32,000 nt of DNA from Candidatus Iainarchaeum sp. (GCA_043808785.1 JAZDEL010000009.1:150653-182652), one strand, 5' to 3'; counted from the stretch's first letter, positions 1 to 22,828 are shown. The notes: generated from the sequence alone by a model not told the origin. A program made the numbers and translations.

Positions 1-745
1 TCGGTGCAACTATTGTCTTGTGCTTCCAGTAGGGGCAGCTTTTTGGCGGGTTTACCCCGCATATCCTGTAATCAATTTTTGAGAACCCTGTGCGCTTCAG
101 CGCATTTAAGTGCTTTGCCGAGAAGCCTTTTTCCTCGTTTGAGTAGTAAGTGAAAACCCCGCCTTTTTTGAGGAGCGAATACGCCTCCTTGAAAAACGGG
201 TGGTGGTAGCGGAAAACAAGATTCAGCACCTTTTTCTTTGAGGCATCCTCGACTATGCTGAACCGCGTCTTTGCCTTGCTGCAAAGGTGCGCCCCCCCGA
301 GGTAGTAAGAATCAAACAGGATGCCGTCGAAACTCCCCTTAGGGAACCTGCCGATTGCGTCCTCCCAGAAGCCGGTTATTACATTTACCTTCCCTTCGGC
401 AATTTCCTTTTTGAACATTTTTTCGGCGTGTGCGGAGATGCCCGGATGGACCTCTATTATCGTGTGGTTTTTCACCTTCGGGTTTTCCCGGATGGCCCTT
501 GCCGCAAGCCCCATGCCGTAGCCGACCTCAAGGATGTTGCCGCCGTTTTTTGTGGCGATTGATGCCAGCGTTTTCATGTAGCTGCGTATCCAGGTGTCCA
601 TTACCTGCCAGCCGCCCACAGTAAGCGAATTTTTGGTGAAGCAGGCTGGCTGCCTTATGAAATCCTTCTCGTCGGGTATATTGGCGTAGCTTACCCTCGC
701 ATCCCCGGAACCGAGGTAGTTTTGAAGTGATGCGCCTGCAGCCAT
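1..745 (-). CDS. SAM-dependent methyltransferase, guanidinoacetate N-methyltransferase (GAMT)/RMT2-like; 3' end runs off the window
   Basis: Minus-strand open frame missing from the supplied ORF track because it has no stop inside the window. In-frame stop upstream at 782-784; ATG at 745, with alternative ATG at 601 and GTG at 769. My translation: MAAGASLQNYLGSGDARVSYANIPDEKDFIRQPACFTKNSLTVGGWQVMDTWIRSYMKTLASIATKNGGNILEVGYGMGLAARAIRENPKVKNHTIIEVHPG...VITGFWEDAIGRFPKGSFDGILFDSYY...FFKEAYSLLKKGGVFTYYSN...CGVNPPKSCPYWKHKTIVAP. It follows the GAMT pattern as I remember it (VMExWExPYM; LEVGFGM motif I; GLWEDV..DGxFDGILYDTY; LKPGGVLTY; PPxxCxYY close to the C-terminus), so only a few residues should be missing. 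Confidence 0.7.
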   Translation of the reverse strand, partial: MAAGASLQNYLGSGDARVSYANIPDEKDFIRQPACFTKNSLTVGGWQVMDTWIRSYMKTLASIATKNGGNILEVGYGMGLAARAIRENPKVKNHTIIEVHPGISAHAEKMFKKEIAEGKVNVITGFWEDAIGRFPKGSFDGILFDSYYLGGAHLCSKAKTRFSIVEDASKKKVLNLVFRYHHPFFKEAYSLLKKGGVFTYYSNEEKGFSAKHLNALKRTGFSKIDYRICGVNPPKSCPYWKHKTIVAP

Positions 746-823
746 AGTTGAAACCCCCCGGATAACCACTGCTACATTTATCTACAAGCATCTTTATAAG
801 AATTTCACTAGCCAGTTGGTTCT

Positions 824-1507
824 GTGCTGACTATCGTAGTGCCCTGCCACAATGAGGAACAGAACCTGGAGGAATGCATCCGCAGGGTTCCGCAGATGCC
901 GTGGGAAACCGAAATAATTGTGGTTGACGACGGCAGCACGGACCGAACCGCGCATGTTTGCCGCGGGGTTGCGGGGGAAGAAAGGCGGAAAGGCAGGGCC
1001 GTGCGGCTTGTAAGTTACGGGAAAAGCCGCGGCAAGGGGTTTGCATTGAGGCGGGGTTTGGAAAGCGCGAATGGGGGGGTAGTTGCAATACTTGATGCCG
1101 ACATGCAGAACCCGCCGGAGGAGCTGCCGCACATTGTGGAGCCCATAATGAACGGAAGTGCGGATTTTGTCAACACAAACCGCTTTGCGGGGGGAGGGCA
1201 CGGATTCAATTTTCATTCCGCAAGGAACAGGCTCCTCGCATTCTTCTTTGCGGGCATTACAGGCATAAATGTAAGGGACTGCCTGAGCGGAATGAAGATT
1301 TTCAGGGCGGAACCGCTGAAGGGGCGGCTTAAAGAGGACGGCTGGCCCGATTTTGAGCTGCTTGTGCTCGCAAAGAGGCGCGGGATGCGCATTGTCGAAC
1401 TGCCTGTCGCCTACGAACCGCGCGAAAGCGGAAAGTCGAAGATGCTTACCCTGCGCGGAAGCGCGGGGCTTTTCAGGGCTTTTGCAGCCTCGCTGCTGCG
1501 GCGTTAG
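824..1507 (+). CDS. Family 2 glycosyltransferase (dolichyl-phosphate sugar synthase-like, DPM1/AglD-type fold)
   Basis: 227-aa ORF with GTG start. The N-terminus TIVVPCHNEEQNLEECI...EIIVVDDGSTDRT and the DxD-type AILDADMQNPPEEL are classic GT-A/GT2 signatures. The C-terminal ...RESGKSKM resembles Dpm1-like enzymes. Confidence 0.85.
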   Translation: MLTIVVPCHNEEQNLEECIRRVPQMPWETEIIVVDDGSTDRTAHVCRGVAGEERRKGRAVRLVSYGKSRGKGFALRRGLESANGGVVAILDADMQNPPEELPHIVEPIMNGSADFVNTNRFAGGGHGFNFHSARNRLLAFFFAGITGINVRDCLSGMKIFRAEPLKGRLKEDGWPDFELLVLAKRRGMRIVELPVAYEPRESGKSKMLTLRGSAGLFRAFAASLLRR

Positions 1508-3468
1508 CCGCGTTTGCACTGCGCCGCGAATTCCGCGCCCGCGGAGCGCAAAATTGCGGCCTTTTTTTCAGGGAATTCGTAATACAGTTCGTCAAGCGCG
1601 CGGATTATCCCTGCGCAGCAGTCCGCACTGTGTGTGCTGCCGAATGCCGTGCACATTGCACTGAATTCCGCAGGCACGGGCCCGCGGCGGTAAATGCTTA
1701 TGTATGCCGCCCCCGCCGTGCAGTCGCCGTAAAACTCGGCGGGAGTGCCGGTGCATGCGCCCGAAATTGCGCCAAGCTCAAAGTAGCATGCATTTCTGTA
1801 GCGCGGGGAAAGCATTGCGCAGGTTTCGGGGGACTGCGGGATGTATGCTGCAAGGGTTTCGGCACAGCAGTCCGCGCAAACTCCGTCAAGCACGCCGCAC
1901 ATTGCGTTTGCGGTTTCAATGTCGCGCCCGTAGGCCATTGCAATGCCCCACACAATTCCCGAGTGGCAGTGTTTCCTGTATTCCGCGGGAACGGCGGCGC
2001 ACCTGCTGATGGCGCTCTCAAGGCGTTCGCTGCTGTTGCATTCCGTGCCTGCGCATCGCTTTGCGAATATCTCGCCATAGCCTATGCCCTGCCCCAGGCC
2101 CCAATAGCAGTGCGCCCTGTTCTGCGCGTCAAATTTCCCGCACTGTTCAAGCGCGGCGGGAATGTCCGCGCCGTGCATCCCGCCCGGCTTTTTGGCAAGC
2201 CAGCCATAACAGTAAGGCCTGTAAACAGAATCGCCGCCGAAATTGAGGTTGCCCGGCTTGATAAGTGCGAGGTTTGAGGCAAGGCCCGCAAGCAGCAGCA
2301 GGCAGATTGCGGCAAATGCCGCAGGCGCAGCCCAACGCGGCAGGCGCACCACCCCCGCTTTCGCTGTGAGGAGTGAGAACGCCTGCGCGATAATTATGAA
2401 CATAAAGGGCAGCAGCGGCACAAAATACCTGAATCCCTTGCCGCCGAATTCGGGATTGACGGTGAAACTGCCGAGGAGGTAGCCTGCGGAATAAATAATG
2501 AAAAATGCAATAGGGAATGCGGGCAAAAGGCTTTTTATGCCGCCGCTATGCCGTGCTTTGCCGAATAATGAAAACGCAACAAGCAGCAGGGAAAGCAAAA
2601 ACACGGCATAGTAAATGCAATTAAGCATCCAACCGTCCAAAAACAAAAGAGCCCTGAAATTCAGGGATGCGGGAAGTTCAACAAGGATGTAATTGGCTGT
2701 TTTCGCTGGCAGGGCCGCAAGCCTTTCCCCCGCGCCCGAAACAAACACGGCCCTTGCCTGAACAAACACCGAGGTGCCGTACGCAAGCGCATAGTAAATA
2801 GCGGGGCTGAATCCCGCAAGGAATGACGCCGAGAACACTGCAAAATTCCTGCGCAGGAAAAAGCCCCTGTCAATTGCAAGCCAAAAAATAATGCATGTTA
2901 TTAGCATCCCCGCAGTCATGCCCCCGAACCACAACGAGAAGCCCGAGGCAATGCCGAATGCCGCGAAGTCGCGCGCGCGGCTTCTGCCCCCGTAAAAAAT
3001 GCGGAAGAAGAGGAACATCATCAGGAGCGTCAAAAATGTGTCCTCAAACGCGTGCTGGGAAATCAGGCCGCGCACTGTGAAGAGCGGCGGGGAGAGCAGG
3101 GCAAGCAGGGAGGCTGCGATTGCGGTTTTCTTGCCGAAATATCTCCTTGAAATCAGGCAGATAAGCGCAAATGTGCCGAGGGAGAATGTGAAGAGCATCA
3201 TCAGCTTGAGAGTGAAGCCCGAAACCCCGAAAAGCGCAAAGAAGGGCGCAATCAGGAAGGGCAGGGAGAGCCCCGCGCCGTCGTAGGGCACCCACATGTA
3301 ATCAAAGTAGGGCATTCTCAAGCCCCGCATAAGCTCAAGCGCAACCGTGCCGCGCACGCACTCCTCGTAGTCAAAAAGTTCAAGGGATGTTGAGGCAATA
3401 AGAAGCCTCAATATGAGGAATGCGAGGACCAGTGCAATGAAAATTTTGCGTTCGATAACCCGTTCCAT
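1504..3468 (-). CDS. GT-C-like polytopic membrane glycosyltransferase (ArnT/PMT_2-like N-terminal region) fused to a ~240-aa cysteine-rich extracytoplasmic C-terminal domain
   Basis: Long ORF. The track starts it at TTG 3492; the first ATG is 3468 (MERVIERKIFIALVLAFLILRLL...), which leaves room for the divergent promoter. About 12 hydrophobic segments and an acidic first loop (ELFDYEEC...YFDYMWVPYDG) are typical of GT-C enzymes. The C-terminal 239 aa carry 19 Cys in repeated Cx(6-8)[RH]xxC[YHC]xG[LI] units. Confidence 0.7.
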   Translation of the reverse strand: MERVIERKIFIALVLAFLILRLLIASTSLELFDYEECVRGTVALELMRGLRMPYFDYMWVPYDGAGLSLPFLIAPFFALFGVSGFTLKLMMLFTFSLGTFALICLISRRYFGKKTAIAASLLALLSPPLFTVRGLISQHAFEDTFLTLLMMFLFFRIFYGGRSRARDFAAFGIASGFSLWFGGMTAGMLITCIIFWLAIDRGFFLRRNFAVFSASFLAGFSPAIYYALAYGTSVFVQARAVFVSGAGERLAALPAKTANYILVELPASLNFRALLFLDGWMLNCIYYAVFLLSLLLVAFSLFGKARHSGGIKSLLPAFPIAFFIIYSAGYLLGSFTVNPEFGGKGFRYFVPLLPFMFIIIAQAFSLLTAKAGVVRLPRWAAPAAFAAICLLLLAGLASNLALIKPGNLNFGGDSVYRPYCYGWLAKKPGGMHGADIPAALEQCGKFDAQNRAHCYWGLGQGIGYGEIFAKRCAGTECNSSERLESAISRCAAVPAEYRKHCHSGIVWGIAMAYGRDIETANAMCGVLDGVCADCCAETLAAYIPQSPETCAMLSPRYRNACYFELGAISGACTGTPAEFYGDCTAGAAYISIYRRGPVPAEFSAMCTAFGSTHSADCCAGIIRALDELYYEFPEKKAAILRSAGAEFAAQCKRG

Positions 3469-3515
3469 AATCAAAACTAATTTAAAGTGCAAAGTACATA
3501 TAAATATCTGGTTCC
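3469..3515. promoter_or_regulatory. Divergent archaeal-type promoter region with two TATA-like boxes
   Basis: 47-nt A/T-rich spacer aatcaaaactaatttaaagtgcaaagtacatataaatatctggttcc. TTTAAA (3481-3486) lies about 30 nt upstream of ATG 3516. ATTTATAT on the minus strand (about 3498-3505) lies about 30 nt upstream of ATG 3468. This implies short or absent 5' leaders. Confidence 0.45.
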
Positions 3516-3791
3516 ATGGCTCCGGAAAAAGTGTACTTTAGGGGGAAGAACATCCTGCGCAGGACTGTCGGGGGGAAAGAAATGATAGTGGATATTGGCA
3601 AGCAGACATTTTACCAGCTGAACACGGCGGGGACATTTGTGTGGGGGCAGATAAACGGCAGCAGGTGCACGGGTGAAATCGCGGCAAAGGTTGCAAAAAG
3701 GTTTGGCCTGCCCGAGGGGCGGGCAAGGGAAGATGTCGAGTCTTTCCTGAAAAGTATTGAAAAGGAAAAACTCGTAAGGCTGAAAGATTAA
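3516..3791 (+). CDS. PqqD-family protein (RiPP recognition element; lasso B1-like, located directly upstream of the B2-like gene)
   Basis: 91 aa. ...EMIVDIGKQTFYQLNTAGTFVWGQINGSRCTGEIAAKVAKRFGLPEGRAREDVESFLKSIEKEKLV fits the PqqD/RRE pattern (xYxLNxxGxxIWxxxDGxxxxxEIxxxLxxxYxVxxExxxxDVxxFLxxLxxxGLI). The stop lies 2 nt before the next gene. Confidence 0.8.
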   Translation: MAPEKVYFRGKNILRRTVGGKEMIVDIGKQTFYQLNTAGTFVWGQINGSRCTGEIAAKVAKRFGLPEGRAREDVESFLKSIEKEKLVRLKD

Positions 3792-3793
3792 GC

Positions 3794-4282
3794 ATGCTAC
3801 AGGAGATGCATATGCTTTTCAGGCTGAAGAAAAAGCACCTGCGCCAGGCATGGAAGATTGCTGCAAGCCCTTCGGATGCCCTTCTTTTCATAGGGATATT
3901 TTTCAGCATCATAATTATTTCAGCCCTGCTTAAATTTTCAAACAGGAAAAGGATTTTCGAGATTATAAAGCCGGGGCGGGTGTTCAGGCCCGCAAACACG
4001 GACGAATACTGCCTCAAGCTCCGCAGGTATGCAAACTTCCTTTTGTCAAGGCGCACGCCGTGCTTCAGGCTCACCTGCATGAAAAGGGCGATTGTTTACT
4101 ACATTTTTCTGAACATGGCAGGCATAGAATCAAGGCTGTGTTTTGGCGTGAGAAAAAATGACTGGGGGGATAAAGGTGCGCTTATGCATGCATGGGCAAG
4201 CGTGGGCAGCAAGCCCTTTCCCCCGAAAAGCGATGATGCCTCTGTTTTCAGGCAGGTGTGCTCGTTTCCCCGCGCGCGCTAG
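3794..4282 (+). CDS. Lasso-peptide B2-like transglutaminase-fold cysteine peptidase (McjB C-terminal / Transglut_core3-like) with an N-terminal TM helix
   Basis: 162 aa. TCMKRAIVYYIFLNMAGIESRLCFGVRKN...GALMHAWASVGSKPF matches the B2 signature CLxRALALxxLLRRxGIxAxLxIGVR...AHAWVExxG, giving the catalytic Cys and the HAW His. The N-terminal segment ALLFIGIFFSIIIISALLKF is a predicted membrane anchor. Confidence 0.75.
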   Translation: MLQEMHMLFRLKKKHLRQAWKIAASPSDALLFIGIFFSIIIISALLKFSNRKRIFEIIKPGRVFRPANTDEYCLKLRRYANFLLSRRTPCFRLTCMKRAIVYYIFLNMAGIESRLCFGVRKNDWGDKGALMHAWASVGSKPFPPKSDDASVFRQVCSFPRAR

Positions 4283-4431
4283 GAAACCAATACCTGGCAC
4301 CCGGCACCAGATGAGGCCTTCATGCAGGTTAATTTGGATGCATTTTTGTCAGCAACAGTGCATAGCGCGGCTGAAATTCTCTCAAATACCTCTTTGGACT
4401 CAATCGCCGGCTTTTCATATTTCCTCTTCAT
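4279..4431 (-). CDS. Candidate RiPP precursor peptide (50 aa): MKRKYEKPAIESKEVFERISAALCTVADKNASKLTCMKASSGAGCQVLVS
   Basis: I checked this codon by codon. The ATG at 4431 lies 7 nt downstream of the radical SAM/SPASM stop (4439-4441) on the same strand. It is the internal Met17 of the track ORF 4279..4479. The leader has Y5-x-x-P8-x-I10, matching the lasso leader motif YxxPxL. Using the Y(-17) spacing, Ser20 falls at -2 and the core starts at Ala22. The core has 3 Cys, many Ser/Thr/Asp/Asn/Lys and a C-terminal Ser. No database evidence. Confidence 0.5.
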   Translation of the reverse strand: MKRKYEKPAIESKEVFERISAALCTVADKNASKLTCMKASSGAGCQVLVS

Positions 4432-4438
4432 CGCAATA

Positions 4439-5524
4439 TTATGCACTTTTCTCTTTATTATTCTTTTCGTTTGCTGCAAGAGCCCTCCTTACGGCAAGCC
4501 TGTGAATCCTTGCCTGCCTGCAGCTTTCGCGCAACGGCATGTCAATGCCTCCCCCCTCAATCATTCTCAGCCCGGGGCAGGTAATGCAGTATGATTTCAG
4601 CCTGCAGGATGTGCAGGCTTCAAGTATTTGGCTTCCCGTTTCCCTTAGCTGTTTAAATGCTTCGGAATTATGCCAGATTTCCTTAAGGCTCCTTTCCCTT
4701 ATGTTGCCGCCCCATATCCTGCCCAGCTCTATGCATGGAGATACATCGCCATAGGGGGAGATGCGGCAGGTATTCCTCCCCGCATAACAGCCTATCAGGT
4801 AAATGGGCTCTTTGTTATTCTCGCGTTCGGCAATCCTGCGCAGGATTGGGGTTTTTGAGCCCTTAAACCTGTCTGCATGCCATTCCGCCAGCTCCCTGTC
4901 GGAGAGCCTGAATTTGCACGGCCCTAGGGAACCGTCGTTCTTGGGGGTAACAAGCGCGGTGTGTGAAAACGTAATCTTTTTTTTCCTGCAGTGCTCTTTC
5001 AGGGGGGCGAACTCCCCCGCGTTCTGCTTCATGAATGTGCTTTTTGCAACAACCTTAACCCTGCGCTTTTTTAGCAGGCGCATTGCCTCGATGGTTCTTT
5101 CAAGGGAGCCGGGCGTGCGTGTAATGCCGTCGTGTATTTCAGGCTTCAGGGAGAAGAGGCTTATCTCAACAGAGAGCGGGCTGAGGGATGCGAGTTTATC
5201 TGCCGCTTCCTCATCAATCAGCGTGCCGTTTGTAAGTATGCGTATGCCGAAGCCGCGTTTCCTTGCATAGCACGCTATTTCAAAGAAGTCCGCGCGCGCC
5301 AGCACCTCGCCGCCCGTGAATGTCAGAAAAAGGCAGCCCAGCTTTTCAAGCTGCCTTATTGCGGATTTTGCCTCCGCAGTTGTCAGTTCCTTTTCATGCC
5401 TTTGCACATTGTAGCACATTACGCAGTCCTGGTTGCATTTGTTTGTCAGCTCAATAATTGCCGAAATCGGGATGCACGCCTTTTCGGAATATCTCATCAG
5501 TTCTATGTATCCCATTGCCCGCAC
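4439..5524 (-). CDS. Radical SAM enzyme with C-terminal SPASM domain (peptide-modifying maturase type)
   Basis: 361 aa. The motif IELTNKCNQDCVMCYN gives CxxxCxxC. FLTFTGGEVL is a GGE-like SAM motif. SPASM cysteines: CRISPYGDVSPC (Gx4C), CTSCRLKSYCITC (Cx2Cx5Cx2C) and a later ESC. Confidence 0.9.
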   Translation of the reverse strand: MRAMGYIELMRYSEKACIPISAIIELTNKCNQDCVMCYNVQRHEKELTTAEAKSAIRQLEKLGCLFLTFTGGEVLARADFFEIACYARKRGFGIRILTNGTLIDEEAADKLASLSPLSVEISLFSLKPEIHDGITRTPGSLERTIEAMRLLKKRRVKVVAKSTFMKQNAGEFAPLKEHCRKKKITFSHTALVTPKNDGSLGPCKFRLSDRELAEWHADRFKGSKTPILRRIAERENNKEPIYLIGCYAGRNTCRISPYGDVSPCIELGRIWGGNIRERSLKEIWHNSEAFKQLRETGSQILEACTSCRLKSYCITCPGLRMIEGGGIDMPLRESCRQARIHRLAVRRALAANEKNNKEKSA

Positions 5525-5533
5525 CTTGCAAGC

Positions 5534-5809
5534 CTACTTTGATTTCATTACAAGCAGGCCTTCTTTCTCCAATTCATGCAGGAATTTCCGCACATCCCTT
5601 TGCACGGTTGTTTTTGCAGCATCATACTCCGCAAAGATTTTTTCAGCTATGCCGCGCTCGCTGTTCCTGCTGTTTATCTTTCCCCATATTCTGGTGCCCG
5701 AGGCATTTAGCGTATATGCGCGGTAATTGCCTGTTTTTATTATCATTGCCTTTTTGCCAATGGCTCTTGAGGCAGTATCATTAGCCCTGCACGGCACTGC
5801 CGCTTTCAC
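5534..5809 (-). CDS. PqqD-family protein (second stand-alone RiPP recognition element, upstream of the radical SAM gene)
   Basis: 91 aa. The GTG start overlaps the kinase-like stop (GTGA). ...MIIKTGNYRAYTLNASGTRIWGKINSRNSERGIAEKIFAEYDAAKTTVQRDVRKFLHELEKEGLLV fits the PqqD pattern. There is a 9-nt gap to the rSAM start. Confidence 0.8.
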   Translation of the reverse strand: MKAAVPCRANDTASRAIGKKAMIIKTGNYRAYTLNASGTRIWGKINSRNSERGIAEKIFAEYDAAKTTVQRDVRKFLHELEKEGLLVMKSK

Positions 5810-6732
5810 AGAATCCCCCCGAGTTTTGCCCCCTTTTCAAGGCAAAGTTCGTAGCACCTGCTTTGCATTGCGATTTCGCTGCACAAATTAAAAACTGCAA
5901 CTGTTTTCCCCCTGCTTTTGTTCATGTGTATCGCGCACCCCATTAGCATATGCAAGGCCTCGGCTTTCGGCAGTTCCGATTTTGAATTCCCGCGGCCTTT
6001 CTTTAGGAATAGGACTGAATCCATTTTAATGCCTTTGTTACTGCCGCGGTTCCCTGCAAGTGCGCCCCTGCCCCCCCAGAAGGGCGTGCCGAAAACGCGC
6101 AGCGTTTTGTTGACTTTGCGTATTGCGCAAATTTCATCATTAAGCACAAGCAGGCTCCTGCGGTTTGCCATTGAAATTGTTGTTTTGCCTGCCCCGCTCC
6201 TCCCCGGGAAAAGGAAGGCGCGGTTTCCCTTTGCAAGTGCGGCAGCATGCACAAGCATGCCGCCCCTCTCGGCAAGGAAAAAGGAGAAGCAGTTCCTGAG
6301 GAAGACATCCACATTGTCCTCCTGCCCCTTATGCACCCAGACCTTCCCCGCGCTATTTCCTGCATCAATCATGCCGCGAATAAACCCGCATTCAATGAAA
6401 AGCTTCTTCCCTTTTGCATTTGTGAATATTGTTGTGTTTTCCCTGCTTCCTATGCCGTTGGAAACGGCAACCTCGACGCAAAAATGCGGCTTTTGTTTTG
6501 AGCGGAAATCCCTGTACTGCTTGCCTATGTAAGAAATGATTTCCGGGCTGTCAGACATTATGCGTGTGCAGATTCCCGCAACTTCAACAAGGCGCGTTTC
6601 GCAGTTTTTCGGGGGCGAAAAATTCCTGAATTCAATCTCACGCTCAGCCATTGGGAACAGCGGCGGCGGCAGGAAATTTTTTTGCATTGCCATATGAAAC
6701 ACAACATCAAAAATACAACATCGAACCAACAT
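5806..6732 (-). CDS. HPr kinase/phosphorylase C-terminal-domain-like P-loop kinase (HprK-related, RiPP-associated type)
   Basis: 308 aa. GGMLVHAAALAKGNRAFLFPGRSGAGKTTISMA matches the HprK-like core (LHAxAv...G.a.ll.G.SGaGKST). The start is uncertain: ATG 6732, or the downstream Met at MAMQKNF or MAEREIEF. Confidence 0.7.
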   Translation of the reverse strand: MLVRCCIFDVVFHMAMQKNFLPPPLFPMAEREIEFRNFSPPKNCETRLVEVAGICTRIMSDSPEIISYIGKQYRDFRSKQKPHFCVEVAVSNGIGSRENTTIFTNAKGKKLFIECGFIRGMIDAGNSAGKVWVHKGQEDNVDVFLRNCFSFFLAERGGMLVHAAALAKGNRAFLFPGRSGAGKTTISMANRRSLLVLNDEICAIRKVNKTLRVFGTPFWGGRGALAGNRGSNKGIKMDSVLFLKKGRGNSKSELPKAEALHMLMGCAIHMNKSRGKTVAVFNLCSEIAMQSRCYELCLEKGAKLGGIL

Positions 6733-6828
6733 GAAGGCAGTTCCAAAAATAATTAAAACAAAGGTTTTAATATAACGGATTGCTAACTAATTACGAACTA
6801 ATTGCGCTGTAATTGTGTCGGTAATTAT
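6733..6828. promoter_or_regulatory. A/T-rich divergent promoter region with TATA-like boxes and an 11-nt-phased AACTAATT direct repeat
   Basis: AAAAATAATTAAAAC (6745-6759) and TTTTAATATAA (6765-6775) lie between the divergent starts at 6732 and 6829. AACTAATT occurs twice (6785-6792 and 6796-6803); the second copy lies about 26-33 nt upstream of ATG 6829. Confidence 0.4.
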
Positions 6829-7689
6829 ATGGGGCTAAAACTGAGGAAATCTTGGCTTGTACTGCCCGTGGCAGTGGCTGCGCTCGCGGTGATCATTGCG
6901 GCGGAACTCCTCTGGCTGAACCCCGATGCGGCGGAGGGGGACGGTTTAGCGGGGCCGCTTGGTTTGGATGCGGGAGGGCTTACTGCAAACGACCAGAACA
7001 AGGAAATTTGCGGGGAGGGATACTATTACACAATTGAGTTTGACTGCTGGCAGAAAAAGGACAATCGCTTCTGTTACGGGGTGAGGGAAAACCCCGCAGG
7101 TTACTGTGCCGGGCCGAGCAACTGCGGCGTGTCAGGCTGCTGCCCTAACCCGAATGACTGCAGGATGGATGGGCGTTGCTATGTCTCCGGAAAAGTCTTT
7201 ACCGGGGACATGTTAGGCATAATGTGTTATGAGGGAAAATTCGGCCTCTGCCGTGAGGATGACGTATGCGAAGAGGTAGGGGGTTATTACTGTACCGGGG
7301 ATACGTGGGTGGAGGAAGAGCCTGCAAATTGCGAGGGCGGGATTTCAATCAAGCCGCCGGAGCCCGAGGATAGCAATGCGGGTACTGAACCAAAAGGCGA
7401 CTGCCCCGAAGGCGAATTTTACCGCGGCGAGTGGGACTGTTTCGAGCGGGGGGATGATGAAAAGTGCGGCTCCGCGGATGCGGGGCACGGATGCTGCGCT
7501 TCCGAGGGGCAGTGCTGGTTCGGGGGAAGGTGCTATGCGGGGGGGAAGCCGCTTTCTGAAAGTTCGGAGTGGATATGCACGGAAGGGATGTGGGATAAGT
7601 GCATTGCTGATGACAGGTGCGAAAAACAGGGCACGTACCTGTGCAATGGGCTGGTGTGGTCTGCCCTGGCGCCCGAGGGGTGTGAATGA
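6829..7689 (+). CDS. Secreted or N-terminally anchored cysteine-rich protein with an internal tandem duplication (two ~95-110-aa Cys-rich domains)
   Basis: The track begins at TTG 6802. ATG 6829 gives MGLKLRKSWLVLPVAVAALAVIIAAELLWL, a signal or anchor sequence. Domain A spans nt 7009-7332 and domain B spans 7402-7683. Both share CxEGx[YF]Y...[FW]DC[WF]...GCC...C...GRCYx[SG]GK...[MI]CxEGx[FW]xxCxxDDxCExxGxYxCxGxxW...CE. I recognise no family. Confidence 0.7.
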   Translation: MGLKLRKSWLVLPVAVAALAVIIAAELLWLNPDAAEGDGLAGPLGLDAGGLTANDQNKEICGEGYYYTIEFDCWQKKDNRFCYGVRENPAGYCAGPSNCGVSGCCPNPNDCRMDGRCYVSGKVFTGDMLGIMCYEGKFGLCREDDVCEEVGGYYCTGDTWVEEEPANCEGGISIKPPEPEDSNAGTEPKGDCPEGEFYRGEWDCFERGDDEKCGSADAGHGCCASEGQCWFGGRCYAGGKPLSESSEWICTEGMWDKCIADDRCEKQGTYLCNGLVWSALAPEGCE

Positions 7690-7755
7690 TAGGTTTTTAT
7701 ATAAGTAAAGAGGATATTTAAACTGTAAAATGCAAATGCACAGGCCGTTGGGAAC

Positions 7756-8256
7756 ATGGCAAAGGCGCGGGCTGGAAAAGGATTCGGCGGCTTCGCTGCT
7801 GCATGCGCGGTTTTTTTGGCGCTGATGTTTGCCGTGCTCGCGGCAAATTATTTCTATTTCAAGGAGGTTCCGCTGAAAACCCCGATAGTATGGGCGCTCG
7901 AGCCTGTTGCGCACATGCTTGTAATTATTGCGCTGTTCATGTTCTTTGCAAGGATGCGGCTAAATGATATGCCCGCATTTTTCACGGGATTTGCAAAAAG
8001 GTGGCCTTACCTGCTCATAGGCGCTGTGCTTGTCTGGGCAAGGTATTCCGTTGGAACGTTCGAGTTTTCAAAATACCTCACCGCCGCGGGCATCGCATCC
8101 CTAGGGCTTTTCGTTTTCGGCTTCAAACGCCTGAGAAGCCTGCGCAGGCGCTACGAGAGGGAGCTTATCCTTGCCGCACTTGCATACCTCTTCCTCCGGG
8201 TTGTGTTCGGGCTCGATTCGGTTATTTATTCCATGCTCATGATGCTGTTTGGGTAA
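7756..8256 (+). CDS. Small polytopic membrane protein, unknown function
   Basis: 166 aa with 4-5 hydrophobic segments (FAAACAVFLALMFAVLAANYF, HMLVIIALFMFFA, YLLIGAVLVWA, AAGIASLGLFVFGF, AALAYLFLRVVFGL). No recognisable motif. Confidence 0.6.
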   Translation: MAKARAGKGFGGFAAACAVFLALMFAVLAANYFYFKEVPLKTPIVWALEPVAHMLVIIALFMFFARMRLNDMPAFFTGFAKRWPYLLIGAVLVWARYSVGTFEFSKYLTAAGIASLGLFVFGFKRLRSLRRRYERELILAALAYLFLRVVFGLDSVIYSMLMMLFG

Positions 8257-8296
8257 CCGAAAAAACAAAAAACGTAACCAAAAAACAAAAAAACGA
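8255..8296. repeat. Two tandem 21-nt A-rich units immediately after a stop codon
   Basis: AACCGAAAAAACAAAAAACGT (8255-8275) and AACCAAAAAACAAAAAAACGA (8276-8296). On the minus strand these read as T6-T7 tracts. Confidence 0.6.
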
Positions 8297-8300
8297 ACGC

Positions 8301-8330
8301 GCCGGTTTTTTTGGGGGGGTTATTTTTTTG
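8301..8330 (+). terminator. Archaeal-type oligo-T terminator candidate
   Basis: gccggTTTTTTTgggggggttaTTTTTTTg: two T7 tracts (8306-8312 and 8323-8329) lie 50-75 nt downstream of the 8256 stop. CAAAAAAA (upstream) can pair with TTTTTTTG to form a weak hairpin. Confidence 0.5.
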
Positions 8331-8367
8331 TGCGGATAGCGGGGCGGAAGCGCATGCCCCGAATACT

Positions 8368-8382
8368 AAATTATATATATAC
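8368..8382 (+). promoter_or_regulatory. TATA-like box upstream of the large surface-protein gene
   Basis: aaattatatatatac, centred about 33 nt upstream of ATG 8408. Confidence 0.4.
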
Positions 8383-8407
8383 GTATGCCATAATCTAATT
8401 GAAAAAT

Positions 8408-11400
8408 ATGGATAATAAGGGTTATCCGCGCACTGCGGGCAGAGGCGCGGGAAGGGGCTTTGCGGGAAAAAGCCGCGCAGGGGGCTTTGCGTTATTTTTG
8501 CTGGCAGTTGCAGTGCTCGCGCTTGCCTCTTATGCAGGCGCCTTCTGCATAACCAATGCCGAGTGTGCGGCAATAAAATGCCCGCCAGCGGCGAACAAGG
8601 ACACAACGCTCTGCAACAGCAAAACAGGGCAGTGCTACTGCGGGCCGAAAACCTGCGGGAACCTCGGCTGCGACAGGGGGGAAAACTTCATAAACTGCCC
8701 GTCGGAGTGCGCTGCAGGCTGCGGAAACCTCAGCTGCGAGCTCGGGGAAAACGGCAGGAACTGCCCCGCTGACTGCAGGGCTGTGTGCGGCAACAAGGTG
8801 TGCGAAACAGGGGAAACCGAATCAAGCTGCTTCTCGGACTGCGGGGGGAAACTGGACTGCTGTGAATATTCCACTGATGCGTATGCGGGCAAGGGGGCGT
8901 GCGTGTTATACTGCGCTGTGTGCGGCGACGGCTACTGCGACAGGCAGAGGGGCGAGGACAGGCTGACCTGCAGCAGGGATTGCGGAATGGCGGGCTGCGG
9001 CGACGGCATATGTGGAGCGGATGAGGACGCGCTGAACTGCCCTGCCGACTGCCCGAAGGCGGAACTGGCGTGCGACGTGAACGCGCACTGCAATAAGCTT
9101 CCGAGCTGCAATTACGCGCCGCACGAGGAGAACATATATTACCTTGCTGAAAAGCCTGTCTTTAATGTGTGCAGCTGCATCACGGGAATGTGCGCAATAA
9201 CCCTGCGCGCCCGCGATATTTGCGGCGACGGGTTCTGCAGCAGGGACGAGAGTTGCGACCCGACATTCGACAATTTCTGCAACCAGGACTGCGGAACATG
9301 CAGGCTTCCGGACCTTGCACTGGCGGGGCTGGAGGCCGACAAGGCTGTCGCTGAAAGCGGGGAAGGGGTTGCAATAACCGCCGCAGTAGAGAACCTCGGC
9401 TCAAAGGAGGCGGGCAAGTTTTCAATCTCGGTTTTCAGGGGAAGCGAGGGCGGGCAGATGCTTGAAACAGCGGAAATCCCCGGGCTGTTCCTTACCCCCG
9501 GAACAGGCGAAGAAAAGGTAGTAAGGTTCGGGAGCGAGGGGCAGCAGGGCGTGGCGCCGCTTGCAGTGGAGTTCGAATTCAGGGCTGAAGAGGGGAAGAC
9601 TGTCGAGAGGTACGACCTTGATTTCGACGGGGATGGGACTTTCGACCTTTCGCTGAAGCCGCCTGTTTCAAAGGTTTCGCACACATACGGAAAGCCCGGC
9701 TTTTACAGGGCCACGACAACCGTAAGGTATGCCGACGGCAGCGGCGGGGAGAGCAGCGCGAACATAACCGCGCTTGAGCCGCAGCTGAGGCACACATTTA
9801 ATCTTGACACAACAGGGATGTGTGGGGAGGTTCTGCTTGTCGTGAAGGCGGATGCGGAAGGGATTATTTCCGAGGCGAGCAGGGAGAACAACAGCAGGGC
9901 AATAGCGCTTAACATAAACTGCCCTGCGCTGCCCGTTGCTGTGTTCACGGTTTCTCATGAGGGTAGGTTTGCGAAGTTTGACGCTTCCGCATCGCACAGC
10001 GATGAGGGCGATATCGTGCAATACAGGTGGGATTTTGGGGGCGGAAAAACAATTGAAGCGGCGGATGCAATTGCGGAGCACACATATGAAACGGACGGCA
10101 ATTTTTCAGTGAAGCTTGTTGTAGTGAATGCAGGCGGCAAGAAGGGCGCCGCTATCAAAAATGTTGTTGTCGGCACCCCCCCAAGCGCGAAAATAAGGCT
10201 CACTAATGGCAGCGGAATCGTGCCGCTGAAGATAGGGGCTGATGCCTCTGCGTCCTCCGACAGCGACGGGGAAATAGTTTCATACGCCTGGAAGTTCGGG
10301 GACTTGGAAAGCGCTGAGGGCATTCAGGCTGAGCACACATACCTCTCCCCCGGAGTTTACTCCCTGCTGCTCGAGGTTGTCGATGATGCGGGCCTGAGGG
10401 GAAGCGCTGTTTCGGAGGTTGTTGTTTTCGGCTCGCAGAAGGCGGACATTGCCATAAAAATGCCGGCGCAGCCGGGCGATGTGGAACGGGAAAATGAAAT
10501 TACTCTTGAGTTTTTGCTTTCAAACATCGACGGCGGGAATGCGGGGGCATTTGATTTAGTGCTGAGGGAAGGGAAGCCCGACGGGAAAGAAGTCGCAAGG
10601 GAAAGCGTGCAGGGCATTAAATCAACGGAGTCCGTAACCGTAAAACTGAAAATAAAAACTCCCGAGGACCTCGGGCCCGTGGATTATTATGTTGTTGCCG
10701 ACCCCGAAGACAGGGTAAGGGAATCGAACAAACGCGACAATGTGCTGCAGATTAGCCTGAATGTCATCCTGCCCGAGATTTGCGGCAACGATACGGATGA
10801 TGATATCGACGGCTATGTGGATGAGGGCTGCGGGGTAAGCGTTGAGGTATGCGCGAACAAAATCGACGATGATGGGGACGGGAAAATTGACGAGGGCTGC
10901 ACGTGGACAGAGGCAATACTTGAGGGCGGGCATCTCATTGTTTCCGCAAAGGAGGAAGTGGTTACTGGGGAGCGGGCTGTTGTTGAGGTAAGCCACCCTC
11001 GGCTTGGGCCTGTTGAGGGTGCGGAACTTAAAATTATTTCACCGCAGGGGAAGGAAACGCGGCTGGCAACGGACAGCGAAGGGAAAGCCGTGCTTATGCT
11101 GAACGAGGTCGGGGAATACGCGCTTGTTGCGACAAAATACACGCTCAGGACAAGCCAGGGGCTGGCTGCGGTTTCGCAGGCAATGATTGCGGAAAGGCTT
11201 GCCAAAGTCCTGCCTGTTGCGCTGTTCGGGCAGGTTGCAATCGACCAGCCGCTGCTGATAATGCTGCTGCTTGCTTTGTGCGCGCTTGTTGCTGTGCTTG
11301 TTTTCGAGAGCGCGGAGCGGCTCTTCACAGAGGCGGAGTATGTGCCTGCCGAGGCACGGCAGAAGAGGGCGTTGAAATATGCCCTTGCGCTTGCGGTTGC

Positions 11401-11569
11401 AGCGGTGCCGCTGCTGATTAACAAGGTATACGGCTTTGAATTCGGCACTGGAGTTGCCGCGGCAGGCCTGCTTGCAATGCTTTTCATCACATACAGCGCA
11501 AGAAAGGTCGACAGGCCCTGGGAAGCGGAGGGAGAACAAAGGCAGGAGGAAATGTTCCCGCCGGAATGA
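8408..11569 (+). CDS. Very large surface protein: N-terminal anchor or signal, six CG[ND]xxC..E..C..DC cysteine repeats, CARDB-like and three PKD-like domains, acidic DDD/DEGC motifs, Ig-like domain, three C-terminal TM helices
   Basis: The track starts at TTG 8399; the first ATG is 8408. Cys repeats include CGNLGCDRGENFINCPSEC, CGNLSCELGENGRNCPADC, CGNKVCETGETESSCFSDC and CGDGICGADEDALNCPADC. PKD-like segments include FDASASHSDEGDIVQYRWDFGGG...HTYETDGNFSVKLVVVNAGG and ADASASSDSDGEIVSYAWKFGD...HTYLSPGVYSLLLEVVDDAG. CARDB-like: VAITAAVENLGSKEAGKFSISVF. The C-terminal hydrophobic helices are followed by a charged tail. Confidence 0.85.
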   Translation: MDNKGYPRTAGRGAGRGFAGKSRAGGFALFLLAVAVLALASYAGAFCITNAECAAIKCPPAANKDTTLCNSKTGQCYCGPKTCGNLGCDRGENFINCPSECAAGCGNLSCELGENGRNCPADCRAVCGNKVCETGETESSCFSDCGGKLDCCEYSTDAYAGKGACVLYCAVCGDGYCDRQRGEDRLTCSRDCGMAGCGDGICGADEDALNCPADCPKAELACDVNAHCNKLPSCNYAPHEENIYYLAEKPVFNVCSCITGMCAITLRARDICGDGFCSRDESCDPTFDNFCNQDCGTCRLPDLALAGLEADKAVAESGEGVAITAAVENLGSKEAGKFSISVFRGSEGGQMLETAEIPGLFLTPGTGEEKVVRFGSEGQQGVAPLAVEFEFRAEEGKTVERYDLDFDGDGTFDLSLKPPVSKVSHTYGKPGFYRATTTVRYADGSGGESSANITALEPQLRHTFNLDTTGMCGEVLLVVKADAEGIISEASRENNSRAIALNINCPALPVAVFTVSHEGRFAKFDASASHSDEGDIVQYRWDFGGGKTIEAADAIAEHTYETDGNFSVKLVVVNAGGKKGAAIKNVVVGTPPSAKIRLTNGSGIVPLKIGADASASSDSDGEIVSYAWKFGDLESAEGIQAEHTYLSPGVYSLLLEVVDDAGLRGSAVSEVVVFGSQKADIAIKMPAQPGDVERENEITLEFLLSNIDGGNAGAFDLVLREGKPDGKEVARESVQGIKSTESVTVKLKIKTPEDLGPVDYYVVADPEDRVRESNKRDNVLQISLNVILPEICGNDTDDDIDGYVDEGCGVSVEVCANKIDDDGDGKIDEGCTWTEAILEGGHLIVSAKEEVVTGERAVVEVSHPRLGPVEGAELKIISPQGKETRLATDSEGKAVLMLNEVGEYALVATKYTLRTSQGLAAVSQAMIAERLAKVLPVALFGQVAIDQPLLIMLLLALCALVAVLVFESAERLFTEAEYVPAEARQKRALKYALALAVAAVPLLINKVYGFEFGTGVAAAGLLAMLFITYSARKVDRPWEAEGEQRQEEMFPPE

Positions 11570-11617
11570 TGTTCTTCGGGTGCAGAAAGTTTATTCCCAA
11601 AGTCTGCCGAATTTGCC

Positions 11618-12061
11618 CTACTCCGCGCTTGCCCCGCTTCCCTTTATCCAGAAAAAGGCTTCCTGCCCGCTTCCACTGTATGACGCCACAACCCTTATTT
11701 TGAAAGGGTATGTTCGAAGTTCGGCAGGCACGTCAAGGGCTGCGGGAACTTCAATGCTTTTCCCCGCAGGAACGAAAATATCCCCGCTCTTTATCAGCGT
11801 GCCCGCTGCAAAGAACCTGACGGCGTAATTCATGTCCCTGCCCTCCCGGTTTTCAATGCCGTATGTGAATACTGCCTTTCCGCCCCTTAGATAGCTGTCC
11901 CAGCTGTCGTGCACAAGGTAAACCGCTGTGCCGTGTTCTGGCTCATTGTAAGCGAGCATAACAAGCAGGGCAACAAGGCTGCCGGCTATAATAAGCGCAA
12001 CGGTTGCCCTAAAAGCGAGGTTAACCAGTTCAGTATTTTCCTTTTCAGTTGCTTGGTTCAT
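11618..12061 (-). CDS. DUF1616-like protein, C-terminal (TM plus extracellular beta-rich) half
   Basis: The ATG at 12061 overlaps the upstream stop (ATGA). MNQATEKENTELVNLAFRATVALIIAGSLVALLVMLAY is a TM segment. It is followed by ...FTYGIENREGRDMNYAVRFF..., which resembles the NhEg...Y.v motif of archaeal DUF1616 proteins. The family call is from memory. Confidence 0.55.
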   Translation of the reverse strand: MNQATEKENTELVNLAFRATVALIIAGSLVALLVMLAYNEPEHGTAVYLVHDSWDSYLRGGKAVFTYGIENREGRDMNYAVRFFAAGTLIKSGDIFVPAGKSIEVPAALDVPAELRTYPFKIRVVASYSGSGQEAFFWIKGSGASAE

Positions 12062-12420
12062 TTTAAAGGCCTCACAATGCATATCGCGTAAAGGAATACT
12101 GCTTCCGCCCCGACAACAATCGCGCTGTTCAGGAAGTTCATGGGCAGATTAAGGATGAAATATGAAACAAGCACGCCGAAAACAACCGAAGGCACGGACA
12201 ATGCGATTGCAAGCATAATTGTTTCAGCAAGCCCTGTCTCCCTCCGCAGCATTGCCGAGCACAACAGCGCGCCCACAGGGAAGAAAACAAGGTAAATTCC
12301 GAGCAATGCCTGCAGGTCGCGCAGCATTGCCATGCCTGAGAGGCGTATTGCGGCAATCGCGAGAAGCGAAACTACGGCGCTTGCGAAAACAAGCGTGTCA
12401 GCGGTTCGGGACATAAACAT
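12058..12420 (-). CDS. DUF1616-like protein, N-terminal membrane half
   Basis: 120 aa with 4 TM segments. LLGIYLVFFPVGALLCSAMLRRETGLAETIMLAIALSVPSVV resembles the FLPGYALxxALFP...ERxALSxGLS start of DUF1616 proteins. It overlaps the 3' end of the upstream gene by about 20 nt. Confidence 0.55.
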   Translation of the reverse strand: MFMSRTADTLVFASAVVSLLAIAAIRLSGMAMLRDLQALLGIYLVFFPVGALLCSAMLRRETGLAETIMLAIALSVPSVVFGVLVSYFILNLPMNFLNSAIVVGAEAVFLYAICIVRPLK

Positions 12421-14092: not shown

Positions 14093-14101
14093 TGTTTCCC
14101 C

Positions 14102-22119: not shown

Positions 22120-22828
22120 GGTCGAGAGGGCATGGACGCACTTTCAAAAAAAAATAGGCGCGTTCATCAAAAACCCGAAATTTGCAATCGCGCGGCTGTT
22201 CGGCAGGAGGCGCGGCTGGCAGGAAAGCGGCGAAGGCGGCGGGCTTAAGGCGAAAAACTACATGAGTTACGGGGAATACCTCGCGCACCAGAAATCGAAA
22301 CTCGGGCTGATGCGGAAAGAAACACTCCTCAAACACGATGAAAAATACCGTCCCGCGCTCATGGAAAGGCTTATGGGGAACGGCATCGCGAAGCGGGGCA
22401 TGAACGTGCTCTGCCTGGGCGCGCGCACGGGCGCGGAGGCAAAGTCCTCCCTCGACCTCGGCTGTTTTGCGGTCGGCATAGATATCAACCCGGGAAAGGA
22501 AAACAAATATGTGCTTTACGGGGATTTCCATAAAATCCAGTTCCCGGCGCAGAGCGCGGACATCGTATTCACTAATTCCCTCGACCATGCCCTCGATTTC
22601 GGGCTGCTTATGAGCGAAATAAAAAGGGTGCTCAAGCCCGAGGGCAGGCTGATAATAGAAATCGCTGATAAAAAAGAGATGCCATGCCCCGGCTATTACG
22701 AGTCTGCGGCGTGGGAAAGCGCAGGGGACATAATTTCATTGTTCCTGAAATCCGGCTTCAGGGCGGAAAGCGAGTCGCGCTTCAGGGTTCCCTGGGAAGG
22801 CAGGCATTTTTCGCTTGCGTTTGAATAA
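22112..22828 (+). CDS. Class I SAM-dependent methyltransferase
   Basis: Motif I is VLCLGARTGAEAKSSLDLGCFAVGIDINP; the post-I/II region is IVFTNSLDHALDF...VLKPEGRLIIEI. The ATG at 22112 overlaps the upstream gene by 8 nt. An alternative start is Met51 (22262, MSYGEYLAHQKSKL). Confidence 0.8.
   Translation: MREVERAWTHFQKKIGAFIKNPKFAIARLFGRRRGWQESGEGGGLKAKNYMSYGEYLAHQKSKLGLMRKETLLKHDEKYRPALMERLMGNGIAKRGMNVLCLGARTGAEAKSSLDLGCFAVGIDINPGKENKYVLYGDFHKIQFPAQSADIVFTNSLDHALDFGLLMSEIKRVLKPEGRLIIEIADKKEMPCPGYYESAAWESAGDIISLFLKSGFRAESESRFRVPWEGRHFSLAFE

Follow-up and report, generated by a model that had tools for sequence, protein, structure and literature searches.

Several described systems modify small ribosomal peptides with parts that recur in the locus analysed here. 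In lasso clusters, HprK-like kinases use a His-Lys-Asp-Asp motif to phosphorylate a conserved Ser at the C-terminus of the precursor; PadeK, ThcoK, SyanK and PsmK (poly)phosphorylate this residue on the linear precursor, after which the nucleoside triphosphate (NTP) transferase PsmN puts a hexose on the phosphate (PMC9266682, PMC6993621). A penultimate Thr is the element that lasso B proteins usually recognise (PMC10368454). The LPP system of Bacillota consists of an HprK-like kinase, a recognition element (RRE) of the kind found in pathways for ribosomally synthesized peptides with post-translational modifications (RiPPs), signal peptidase I (SpI) and an NTP-transferase, with YxxP leaders and a setting in polysaccharide loci (Popov et al. 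2026, PMC13381572). Its kinase, LppK, phosphorylates Ser3 of the core and not the C-terminus, and LPP and paeninodin clusters co-localise in Bacilli (PMC13381572). The YxxP-type leader motif is recognised by discrete lasso RREs, by LPP RREs and by PqqD, and the leaders of pyrroloquinoline quinone (PQQ) share the lasso-like RRE motif (PMC13381572). A further relative, SynChlorMet (TIGR04248 ScmD, TIGR04249 ScmC, TIGR04250 ScmE, TIGR04251 ScmF; PF27840), is defined bioinformatically, and its product is unknown. We analysed a stretch of 32,000 nucleotides from Candidatus Iainarchaeum sp. (GCA_043808785.1 JAZDEL010000009.1:150653-182652; hereafter the window) in which six genes between positions 3516 and 6732 resemble parts of these systems.

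An earlier note on this DNA had described the six genes as a hybrid of a lasso-type split B peptidase, a radical S-adenosylmethionine (SAM)/SPASM enzyme and an HprK-like kinase. The genes very probably form a RiPP cluster, as indicated by their co-conservation, by a conserved leader followed by a hypervariable core and by the RREs. Our interpretation, which we regard as probable, is that the pathway is not a lasso pathway: an RRE-guided radical SAM enzyme would crosslink Cys residues, the C-terminal Ser would be phosphorylated and B1/B2 would remove the leader. We consider a lasso assignment very improbable because the kinase, the RRE, the radical SAM enzyme and the precursor all belong to a cassette family, because neither the window nor the retrieved flanks of the cassette loci showed a cyclase belonging to the cassette and because the acidic acceptor is absent in the orthologs. 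The cluster represents an uncharacterised RiPP family built from known module types, of which the window holds a rare swapped-peptidase variant in a DPANN archaeon; the chemistry ascribed to it is what we infer.

While the leader motif and the partner proteins are observed, the steps that join them are proposed. Discrete PqqD-type RREs would bind the lasso-type leader (Y-E-K-P-A-I...), and the cassette RRE (5534-5809) would present the peptide to the SPASM radical SAM enzyme, which would crosslink the three conserved Cys of the core, most likely through thioethers like those of sacti- or ranthipeptides. In the manner of PadeK, ThcoK and PsmK in phosphorylated lasso peptides, the ScmC-type P-loop enzyme would put a phosphate on the side chain of the conserved Ser at the C-terminus. 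B1 (3516-3791) would hand the leader to the B2 cysteine peptidase, which, going by conservation and lasso rules, is predicted to cut after ...E-R-I-S-A and to release a core of about 29 residues (ALCTV...QVLVS). No macrolactam ring would be formed. In the evolution of the window variant, a lasso-type B1/B2 pair would have taken the place of the SpI leader peptidase.

Precursor peptides and the kinase, RRE and radical SAM cassette

The precursor gene lies on the minus strand at 4279-4431. The open reading frame (ORF) was called as 4279-4479, and an internal ATG at 4431 gives a peptide of 50 residues, MKRKYEKPAIESKEVFERISA-ALCTVADKNASKLTCMKASSGAGCQVLVS (predicted leader and core). The earlier note had picked it out as a Cys-containing ORF; it appears in the NCBI annotation as V1676_06415, and orthologs that share its leader exist in two other contigs. 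The ortholog in L001, a contig syntenic with the window, is MKAKYEKPAIESKESFERISA-SLCLTTRTSSRPTCQKVSGTNCPAAKLS, and that in L087 is MKAKYEKPAIESKEVFERISA-VICNLPSRNSGRTTCAKQPEFLYCGGGNYS. All three consist of a nearly invariant leader of 21 residues and a hypervariable, Ser/Thr-rich core with three Cys and a C-terminal Ser, and conservation among them ends exactly after ...ERISA. Of the three cores, that of the window has an acidic residue within positions 7-9 (Asp7), and those of L001 and L087 have none there. No second precursor could be detected in the window. The window precursor and two typical members of its family have no NCBIfam match, and the Pfam match of the window peptide is at chance level.

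This precursor family, newly recognised in the present analysis, was found as small ORFs in 69 loci, with 66 unique sequences. The peptides have a basic N-terminus, and all 66 contain a [Y/W/F]xxPx[LIVMFA] motif, which in the window reads YEKPAI. The first Cys follows the aromatic residue of the motif by 18-20 residues; three Cys are present in 50 of the 66 sequences and two in 13. Ser is the last residue in 61 of the 66 and Thr in three more, whereas the background of Ser-terminated sequences, taken over every small ORF of these loci, is 11.4%. When redundant precursors are crudely filtered out, Ser is still the last residue in 33 of 37.

Relatives of the kinase-like protein were used to delimit the wider family. 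A search of 1.84 billion representative proteins with a kinase profile returned 3,739 clusters (at 50% identity) with E<=1e-30 and 18,664 with E<=1e-10. In 185,579 species genomes (one genome per species, a set that the window's own genome lies outside), a scan seeded with an alignment of eight kinase sequences found 194 relatives. Most belong to metagenome-assembled genomes (MAGs) of Nitrospirota/Thermodesulfovibrionia, Elusimicrobiota, Methylomirabilota, Desulfobacterota, Planctomycetota and Acidobacteriota, and those from archaea belong to Methanobacteriaceae and Woesearchaeota. The gene content of 86 loci was determined by calling ORFs and comparing them with profiles for which the window and its relatives served as seeds. 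Loci that extend 5 kb or more to either side of the kinase gene, 45 in number, were treated as well flanked; among these, PqqD is present in 39 (87%), a radical SAM/SPASM gene in 41 (91%), SpI, an S24-like peptidase, in 37 (82%), a precursor in 38 (84%) and NTP_transf_5 in 10 (22%). PqqD occupies the same position, beside the kinase or radical SAM gene, in 87% of the well-flanked loci. The co-conservation that the earlier note had put forward as a check is thus borne out.

Recurring gene orders are (SpI)-kinase-PqqD-precursor-radical SAM and PqqD-radical SAM-precursor-kinase-SpI; kinase-SpI and PqqD-radical SAM fusions also occur, and ABC exporters adjoin many of the loci. The SpI copy of L012 scores 57.2 bits with TIGR02228, for which the cutoff is 51.85. 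In Polyangia-type loci (L038 9596-11005, L051 238-1677, L055 9566-11011), the kinase-like protein and SpI are fused in a protein of about 460 residues, and the precursors have a Trp-type leader, W-Q/R-R-P-R/Q-V-K.... In L004 no precursor directly follows the radical SAM gene, and one is found upstream instead. A Candidatus Woesearchaeota MAG (L085 3943-9004) represents a second DPANN lineage with an SpI-type cassette, composed of a radical SAM enzyme, the kinase-like protein, PqqD, SpI, NTP_transf_5 and a second radical SAM enzyme; no precursor of the family type was found in L085.

In the window, the kinase-like gene occupies 5806-6732 on the minus strand as a maximal ORF, inside which the likely start is 6651 (NCBI's choice) or 6687. 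Its product carries the precomputed database label PF27840 (ScmC), and all but two of the listed kinase homologs carry the same label. Scans of Pfam and NCBIfam gave weak matches of its P-loop region to PEPCK_ATP, HprK_rel_A/B (E about 5e-7) and ScmC. Across 48 homologs with 20-59% identity to the window protein, H135, G150, G155, K156, T158 and D172 are invariant, and D172 is always followed by Glu or Asp; the window protein has D172-E173 and a GxSGxGKT P-loop. An AlphaFold model built from this alignment has a predicted local distance difference test (pLDDT) score of 92.7 and a predicted TM-score (pTM) of 0.90. The best fold matches of the model in the PDB are ATP-dependent phosphoenolpyruvate carboxykinases (PEPCKs), which it matches over both domains (E 1.6e-9, TM about 0.53). 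We take HPr kinase to be a member of the same P-loop superfamily as PEPCK.

The name HprK-like given in the earlier note therefore appears correct at the level of the superfamily, with a PEPCK-like fold, and for the catalytic His, Lys and Asp-Glu. The family, however, is ScmC: in place of the Hpr_kinase_C (PF07475) match that had been expected there are the weak P-loop-region matches, and the protein is not close to lasso-cluster kinases. The bacterial contig L168, which contains both a cassette and a lasso cluster, allows a direct comparison: 268 residues of the window kinase align with its cassette kinase (E 2.5e-26), and only 44 P-loop residues with its lasso kinase (E 0.002). NCBIfam and sequence comparison revealed no characterised kinase that is a close relative. 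Taken with the precedent of the lasso kinases, the near-invariant C-terminal Ser of the family provides a concrete predicted target for the ScmC-like kinase. Judging from the catalytic residues, the fold and this Ser, we lean slightly towards C-terminal Ser phosphorylation as the function of the enzyme.

The radical SAM/SPASM peptide maturase is encoded at 4439-5524 on the minus strand (Radical_SAM E 1.9e-26, SPASM E 3.1e-13). The cassette RRE, which is the second PqqD of the cluster (5534-5809, minus strand; PF05402 E 1.2e-14), is the partner of this enzyme and probably also of the kinase. The Pfam matches and the invariant cysteine set agree with the earlier description of a radical SAM/SPASM enzyme with its own PqqD. 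The CX3CX2C motif and the full set of SPASM cysteines are present in the window enzyme, and C30-x3-C34-x2-C37 and C246, C253, C264, C304, C307, C313, C316 and C335 are invariant in three orthologs. The best full-length NCBIfam matches are MftC (133 vs a cutoff of 265), PqqE (101 vs 381), StsB and the GeoRSP radical SAM enzyme, all far under cutoff. Partial matches to StsB, AlbA and PapB were found, and the cutoffs of the AlbA, SkfB, StsB and PapB equivalog models are not reached. By sequence, the nearest solved structures are SkfB (E 2.6e-14), PqqE and SuiB. Given the SPASM domain, the RRE and the conserved Cys, Cys-derived thioethers are the likeliest chemistry, an assignment that we consider evenly balanced.

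A metagenome scan with the radical SAM enzyme gave relatives that all have <=38% identity and, past about the tenth locus, are generic radical SAM enzymes. In the closest of them (30-38%), PqqD is fused to the radical SAM enzyme (L088 468-1877, L089 462-1865, L090 3-1283, L095 162-1400). The precursors of L088 and L089 are longer, with four Cys, and also end in Ser.

As the earlier note had claimed, the window lacks a lasso cyclase: Pfam and NCBIfam scans of all large ORFs in the 32 kb found no Asn-synthetase-like protein, and seeds of E. coli AsnB and of a genuine lasso cyclase matched nothing in the window or in the kinase-anchored loci L001-L085, the syntenic L001 included. In a positive control, the AsnB seed detected the genuine lasso cyclase at E 1.8e-15. 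A check of homologous loci for an adjacent cyclase had also been proposed, and the cassettes carry none of their own; the only cyclase in the retrieved flanks is that of L168, where it is part of a separate, complete lasso cluster. An ORF of 564 residues without a family match (12398-14092) was considered as a hidden cyclase and rejected, being a polytopic membrane protein.

The B1/B2 peptidase pair

B1 (3516-3791, plus strand; PF05402 E 1.2e-13) is a PqqD-type RRE paired with B2 (3794-4282, plus strand; PF13471 E 5.1e-11), a lasso-type cysteine leader peptidase that resembles transglutaminases. B2 scores 45.2 bits with the NCBIfam model lasso_biosyn_B2 (NF033537), for which the cutoff is 33, and the NCBI protein identical to it is named 'lasso peptide biosynthesis B2 protein'. 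These matches support the split, lasso-type B1/B2 pair of the earlier note, and hidden Markov model searches likewise uphold its PqqD (PF05402, found twice), Transglut_core3 and SPASM assignments. C95 (in TCMKRA), H132 (in HAW) and D147 of B2 are invariant in three orthologs, and the Cys and His motifs are the same as in the B2 of the genuine lasso cluster of L168. Window B2 has no PDB match by sequence, and scanning metagenomes with the B2 alignment turned up no relative. The best NCBIfam matches of B1 are lasso PqqD chaperone models, under their cutoffs. B1 is 51% identical to its L001 ortholog and 34% identical to the second PqqD of the window, which is 58% identical to its own L001 ortholog. 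The PqqD paralogs, at 34-37% identity, are about as distant from each other as cassette RREs of different lineages, which would fit an origin of B1 by duplication of the cassette RRE as well as its arrival together with B2.

Among the family loci, just three have a cassette that includes B2, namely the window, L001 and L087. The L001 kinase and B2 are 57% and 66% identical to those of the window, and the L087 B2 is 52% identical. A convergent layout, with B2 facing the precursor and radical SAM genes, is kept in all three. SpI was not detected in any of them; as the L087 contig is just 2.4 kb long, this absence is firm for the window and L001 only. In L001 (13080-14766), B2 and B1 are parted by an arginase-family gene (PF00491) and an NTP_transf_5 gene, both lacking in the window. 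The arginase-family enzyme might turn Arg into ornithine, and the L001 core has two Arg. With no NTP_transf_5 in the window, a sugar on the phosphate may be absent from its pathway, or may come from neighbouring glycosyltransferases.

The residues around the predicted cleavage site differ between the two kinds of loci. Among the 63 SpI-type precursors, small residues prevail ahead of the first Cys both at -3 (Ala, Gly or Ser, 92%) and at -1 (Gly, Ala or Ser, 90%), which fits the (-3,-1) rule of signal peptidases. The three B2-type precursors have Leu or Ile at -1 before the first Cys, and Ser-Ala 15-16 residues after the Tyr. With Ser 15 residues after the Tyr, the spacing is the one that the YxxPxLx3Gx5Tx rule assigns to the lasso Thr(-2). 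That the cleavage-site context shifts together with the peptidase is the strongest argument for B1/B2 acting on the window precursor in place of SpI. Removal of the leader after Ala21 by B1/B2 is likely on the grounds of conservation and lasso rules. The pair appears to be a replacement for the archaeal-type SpI that is present in about 80% of family loci, rather than a plain addition to the cassette.

A possible route for such an exchange can be seen in L168 (JGI 3300079084, Ga0665309_00000858, 46711-67532). Positions 1-12239 of this locus cover both a complete paeninodin-like lasso cluster, with an HprK-like kinase, B2, B1 and an Asn_synthase cyclase, and, about 6 kb away from it, a cassette of SpI, the ScmC-like protein, PqqD and the radical SAM enzyme. 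Between the two are dTDP-sugar genes, a methyltransferase gene and a JmjC/cupin gene. The arrangement mirrors the co-localisation of LPP and paeninodin clusters in Bacilli, and co-location of this kind is a plausible source of the peptidase swap.

Alternative explanations and genomic setting

With its lasso-type B1/B2 pair and a B2 above the NCBIfam lasso cutoff, the locus could be read as a paeninodin-type lasso cluster (kinase, B1 and B2) that is ordinary except for being broken up, has its cyclase elsewhere in the genome and uses the radical SAM enzyme for tailoring only. The lasso RRE motif of the leader, the paeninodin-like Ser terminus, Asp at position 7 of the predicted window core, the restriction of our view of the genome to 32 kb and the full lasso cluster that adjoins a cassette in L168 would all suit such a reading. 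We consider it very improbable. A cyclase is seen neither in the window nor in syntenic L001, both orthologous cores lack an acidic residue at 7-9, and the kinase is of the cassette type (E 2.5e-26, against 0.002 for the lasso type); moreover, the kinase, RRE, radical SAM enzyme and precursor have their orthologs in a cassette that about 85 other loci contain without its own cyclase. The lasso features might instead belong to an unrelated neighbour, with B1/B2 a remnant of a decayed lasso cluster that does not act on the precursor. The modules are on opposite strands, the two PqqDs are just 34% identical, two inserted genes part B1 from B2 in L001, and L168 is an example of how a lasso cluster and a cassette can lie close together and yet be separate. 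Yet the convergent layout is kept in three contigs whose B2s are 52-66% identical, and the same loci have no detectable SpI (firm for the window and L001). The putative catalytic Cys and His of B2 are conserved, the precursor has lost the small -1 residue of the SpI type and gained Ser-Ala at the lasso cleavage offset, and the window has no detectable second precursor; we regard the neighbour explanation as improbable.

Other explanations concern the product and the chemistry. The pairing of PqqD with a radical SAM enzyme follows PQQ and mycofactocin logic, MftC and PqqE are the best full-length matches of the enzyme, and the window has no adjacent exporter, all of which would fit the maturation of a peptide-derived redox cofactor rather than of a secreted or bioactive peptide. 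Cofactor precursors, however, are known to keep an invariant core, whereas the core here is hypervariable between close orthologs except for the Cys and the C-terminal Ser; ABC exporters adjoin many family loci, the MftC and PqqE scores are far under their cutoffs, and a cofactor is hardly credible as the product. The ScmC-like protein, for its part, may be something other than a C-terminal Ser kinase. It could phosphorylate internal Ser/Thr for elimination and Cys addition, giving lanthionine-like rings, or serve as an ATP-dependent scaffold, while the radical SAM enzyme would carry out other chemistry (epimerisation, C-C crosslinking or C-terminal decarboxylation). Its close relatives include no characterised kinase, LppK acts on an internal Ser, the cores are rich in Ser/Thr, and MftC-like enzymes, as we understand the function of MftC, act on C-termini. 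Set against this are a C-terminal Ser that is the sole near-invariant hydroxyl residue, invariant catalytic His, Lys and Asp-Glu, the conserved two or three Cys that are classic SPASM thioether donors, and the finding of no lyase or cyclase domain in the cassette. These alternative roles are unlikely.

The interpretation of the cluster as a non-lasso RiPP pathway has points against it too. Every biochemical step is a prediction, and this holds for all members of the family. For the kinase-like protein, the Pfam scan gave no PF07475 match at E<=1, and the true lasso-cluster kinase resembles it across 44 P-loop residues alone; conservation is what singles out the C-terminal Ser as its target, and LppK targets Ser3. 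The radical SAM enzyme is far under every NCBIfam equivalog cutoff, and MftC, its best full-length match, is not a thioether synthase, which makes the crosslink type a guess. The AlphaFold model of B2, built from three sequences, is of low confidence (pLDDT 66.6), and its fold matches are non-significant (best E 0.19), with transglutaminase-like peptidases dominating the top of the list. Position -2 of the leader is Ser and not the canonical Thr, and a Ser at the same offset is also found in three SpI-type precursors with a Trp leader. Within this MAG, the search for a cyclase covered 32 kb of a contig of 182,652 bp, and a cyclase could act in trans. Finally, no dedicated exporter is adjacent, and the nearest ABC transporter is about 8 kb away.

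The six ORFs are all where the earlier note had placed them, and its tight junctions are present. Two nucleotides separate B1 from B2, the kinase stop and the start of the second PqqD share the sequence GTGA (the PqqD start codon being GTG), and the radical SAM stop codon TAA (4441-4439) is followed by 7 nucleotides and then by the precursor ATG. The convergent units meet on the overlapping stop codons of the precursor and B2 (4279-4282), and TATA-like AT-rich boxes are directly upstream of B1. The archaeal host suspected from the sequence is confirmed by identical NCBI proteins from a MAG of Candidatus Diapherotrites (DPANN). A scan of the window with a sigma-70 promoter and terminator model, which is not applicable to an archaeon, gave no more than the shuffled expectation, and Rfam and tRNA scans of the window were empty. 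A reading as a defence system was dropped, PADLOC having returned merely a generic similarity to the radical SAM core of viperin.

Beside the cluster, at 6802-11569, are three genes that are syntenic in L001. They encode a Cys-rich secreted protein of 295 residues with two repeats and no family match (6802-7689), a small membrane protein also without a family match (7756-8256), and a PKD/CARDB surface protein of 1056 residues with many Cys-rich repeats (8399-11569). On the other side, divergent from B1, a gene at 1504-3492 encodes a protein of 662 residues whose N-terminal half is a polytopic membrane region and whose C-terminal half is rich in Cys; it has no Pfam or NCBIfam match, and the TTG start probably makes the ORF too long. 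An ABC transporter (ATPase 14923-15918, ABC-2 permease 14102-14926) and the 564-residue polytopic membrane protein make up a set at 12398-15918 that is also syntenic in L001 and, lying about 8 kb from the cluster, is a possible candidate exporter. It is followed by a KaiC-family ATPase (16099-16884) and, in the region to 18736, by a protein of 601 residues in which a 'choice-of-anchor X' domain (NF041940) and a weakly MG2-like region were recognised. Glycan genes, namely glycosyltransferases of the GT2, GT1 and GT4 families together with methyltransferases, are found at 22112-31866. Glycan and polysaccharide genes recur beside other cassettes, for example PS_pyruv_trans and Polysacc_synt in L002 (1-5212) and rml genes in L168 (5661-8978).

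Comparison with described systems

In the full-text literature outside subscription-only sources, we found no paper on a cassette of a radical SAM enzyme, an HprK/ScmC-like protein and SpI or B2, on its precursor family or on SynChlorMet. The earlier note had asked whether this gene set was already a characterised system, and openly searchable full text gave no such paper. We tentatively suggest that cassettes of an ScmC-like protein, an RRE, a radical SAM/SPASM enzyme and a leader peptidase may constitute an undescribed RiPP class of linear, Cys-crosslinked peptides with a (poly)phosphorylated C-terminal Ser, with members in many bacterial phyla and in three or more lineages of archaea. Their DPANN variant would then be the first case of a lasso B1/B2 in a non-lasso pathway, with one leader read in turn by two RREs and with SpI and B1/B2 interchangeable.

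If this is true, a testable precursor and enzyme set would be at hand for a large family known just as a bioinformatic cassette, with thousands of protein clusters, the SynChlorMet type included. The logic of an HprK-like kinase, an RRE and SpI without a cyclase, known from Bacillota, would reach far past that phylum and would here be joined to radical SAM chemistry. An exchange of SpI for B1/B2 would mean that leader-peptidase modules can be swapped between RiPP classes, which would be useful for pathway engineering. Genome-mining rules treat B2 as diagnostic of lasso peptides, and NCBI already labels the window B2 as lasso biosynthesis. The cluster would also add a rare case of a well-defined RiPP pathway from a DPANN archaeon with a small genome, and the surrounding cell-surface and glycan genes hint at a role in cell-cell interaction.

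The nearest named gene set is SynChlorMet, which shares with the window an ScmC-type P-loop protein, a PqqD homolog and a PqqE-like radical SAM/SPASM enzyme; the window proteins match ScmC, ScmD and ScmE weakly. All of these scores are under their cutoffs (ScmC 24.9 vs 125, ScmD 19-22 vs 100, ScmE 111.5 vs 400), and the window has one radical SAM enzyme where SynChlorMet has two, as well as B1/B2 and an identified precursor family. To our knowledge, the TIGRFAM description of SynChlorMet reports no precursor. Typical members of the family also fail the SynChlorMet equivalog cutoffs, and the family is thus related to the SynChlorMet cassette without being the same thing. The earlier note had proposed a distant relative of HprK-related, PqqD and radical SAM systems with an added B2; this was essentially right, except that the closest named set is SynChlorMet and not GeoRSP, and that B1/B2 appears to substitute for SpI.

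LPP and the family have in common a kinship with phosphorylated lasso peptides, the absence of a cyclase, an HprK-like kinase, a discrete RRE and a [Y/W]xxP leader; an NTP-transferase is often present as well, and the loci lie among glycan genes. Unlike the window, with its radical SAM/SPASM enzyme, the LPP paper mentions no radical SAM enzyme; the LPP kinase targets Ser3 of the core, and LPP is described as restricted to Bacillota (PMC13381572). SpI, NTP_transf_5 and an MsbA-like pump were not found in the window, whereas the wider family has SpI in 82% and NTP_transf_5 in 22% of loci. With the paeninodin and pseudomycoidin lasso systems (PadeK, ThcoK, PsmK, PsmN), the window shares the split B1/B2, the leader motif, the C-terminal Ser and a P-loop kinase with His-Lys-Asp-Asp/Glu, and relatives such as L001 have an NTP_transf_5 gene as well. 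It differs from them in having no macrolactam cyclase, no conserved Asp or Glu at core positions 7-9 and a kinase of the ScmC type, and in having a radical SAM/SPASM enzyme with its own RRE.

Sacti- and ranthipeptide systems (AlbA, SkfB, PapB, StsB) also combine an RRE-guided radical SAM/SPASM enzyme with a Cys-containing core, and the window core has three conserved Cys. Here, however, the RRE is discrete and not fused, the scores are far under the cutoffs, a kinase and a lasso-type peptidase are present, and the thioethers are predicted only. Mycofactocin (MftB/MftC) and PQQ (PqqD/PqqE) have in common with the window a discrete PqqD-type chaperone and a SPASM radical SAM enzyme, whereas the window core is hypervariable, without conserved cofactor-forming residues, and is accompanied by a kinase and a leader peptidase. 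On these comparisons, the window cluster is a full member of none of SynChlorMet, LPP and the paeninodin-type lasso systems.

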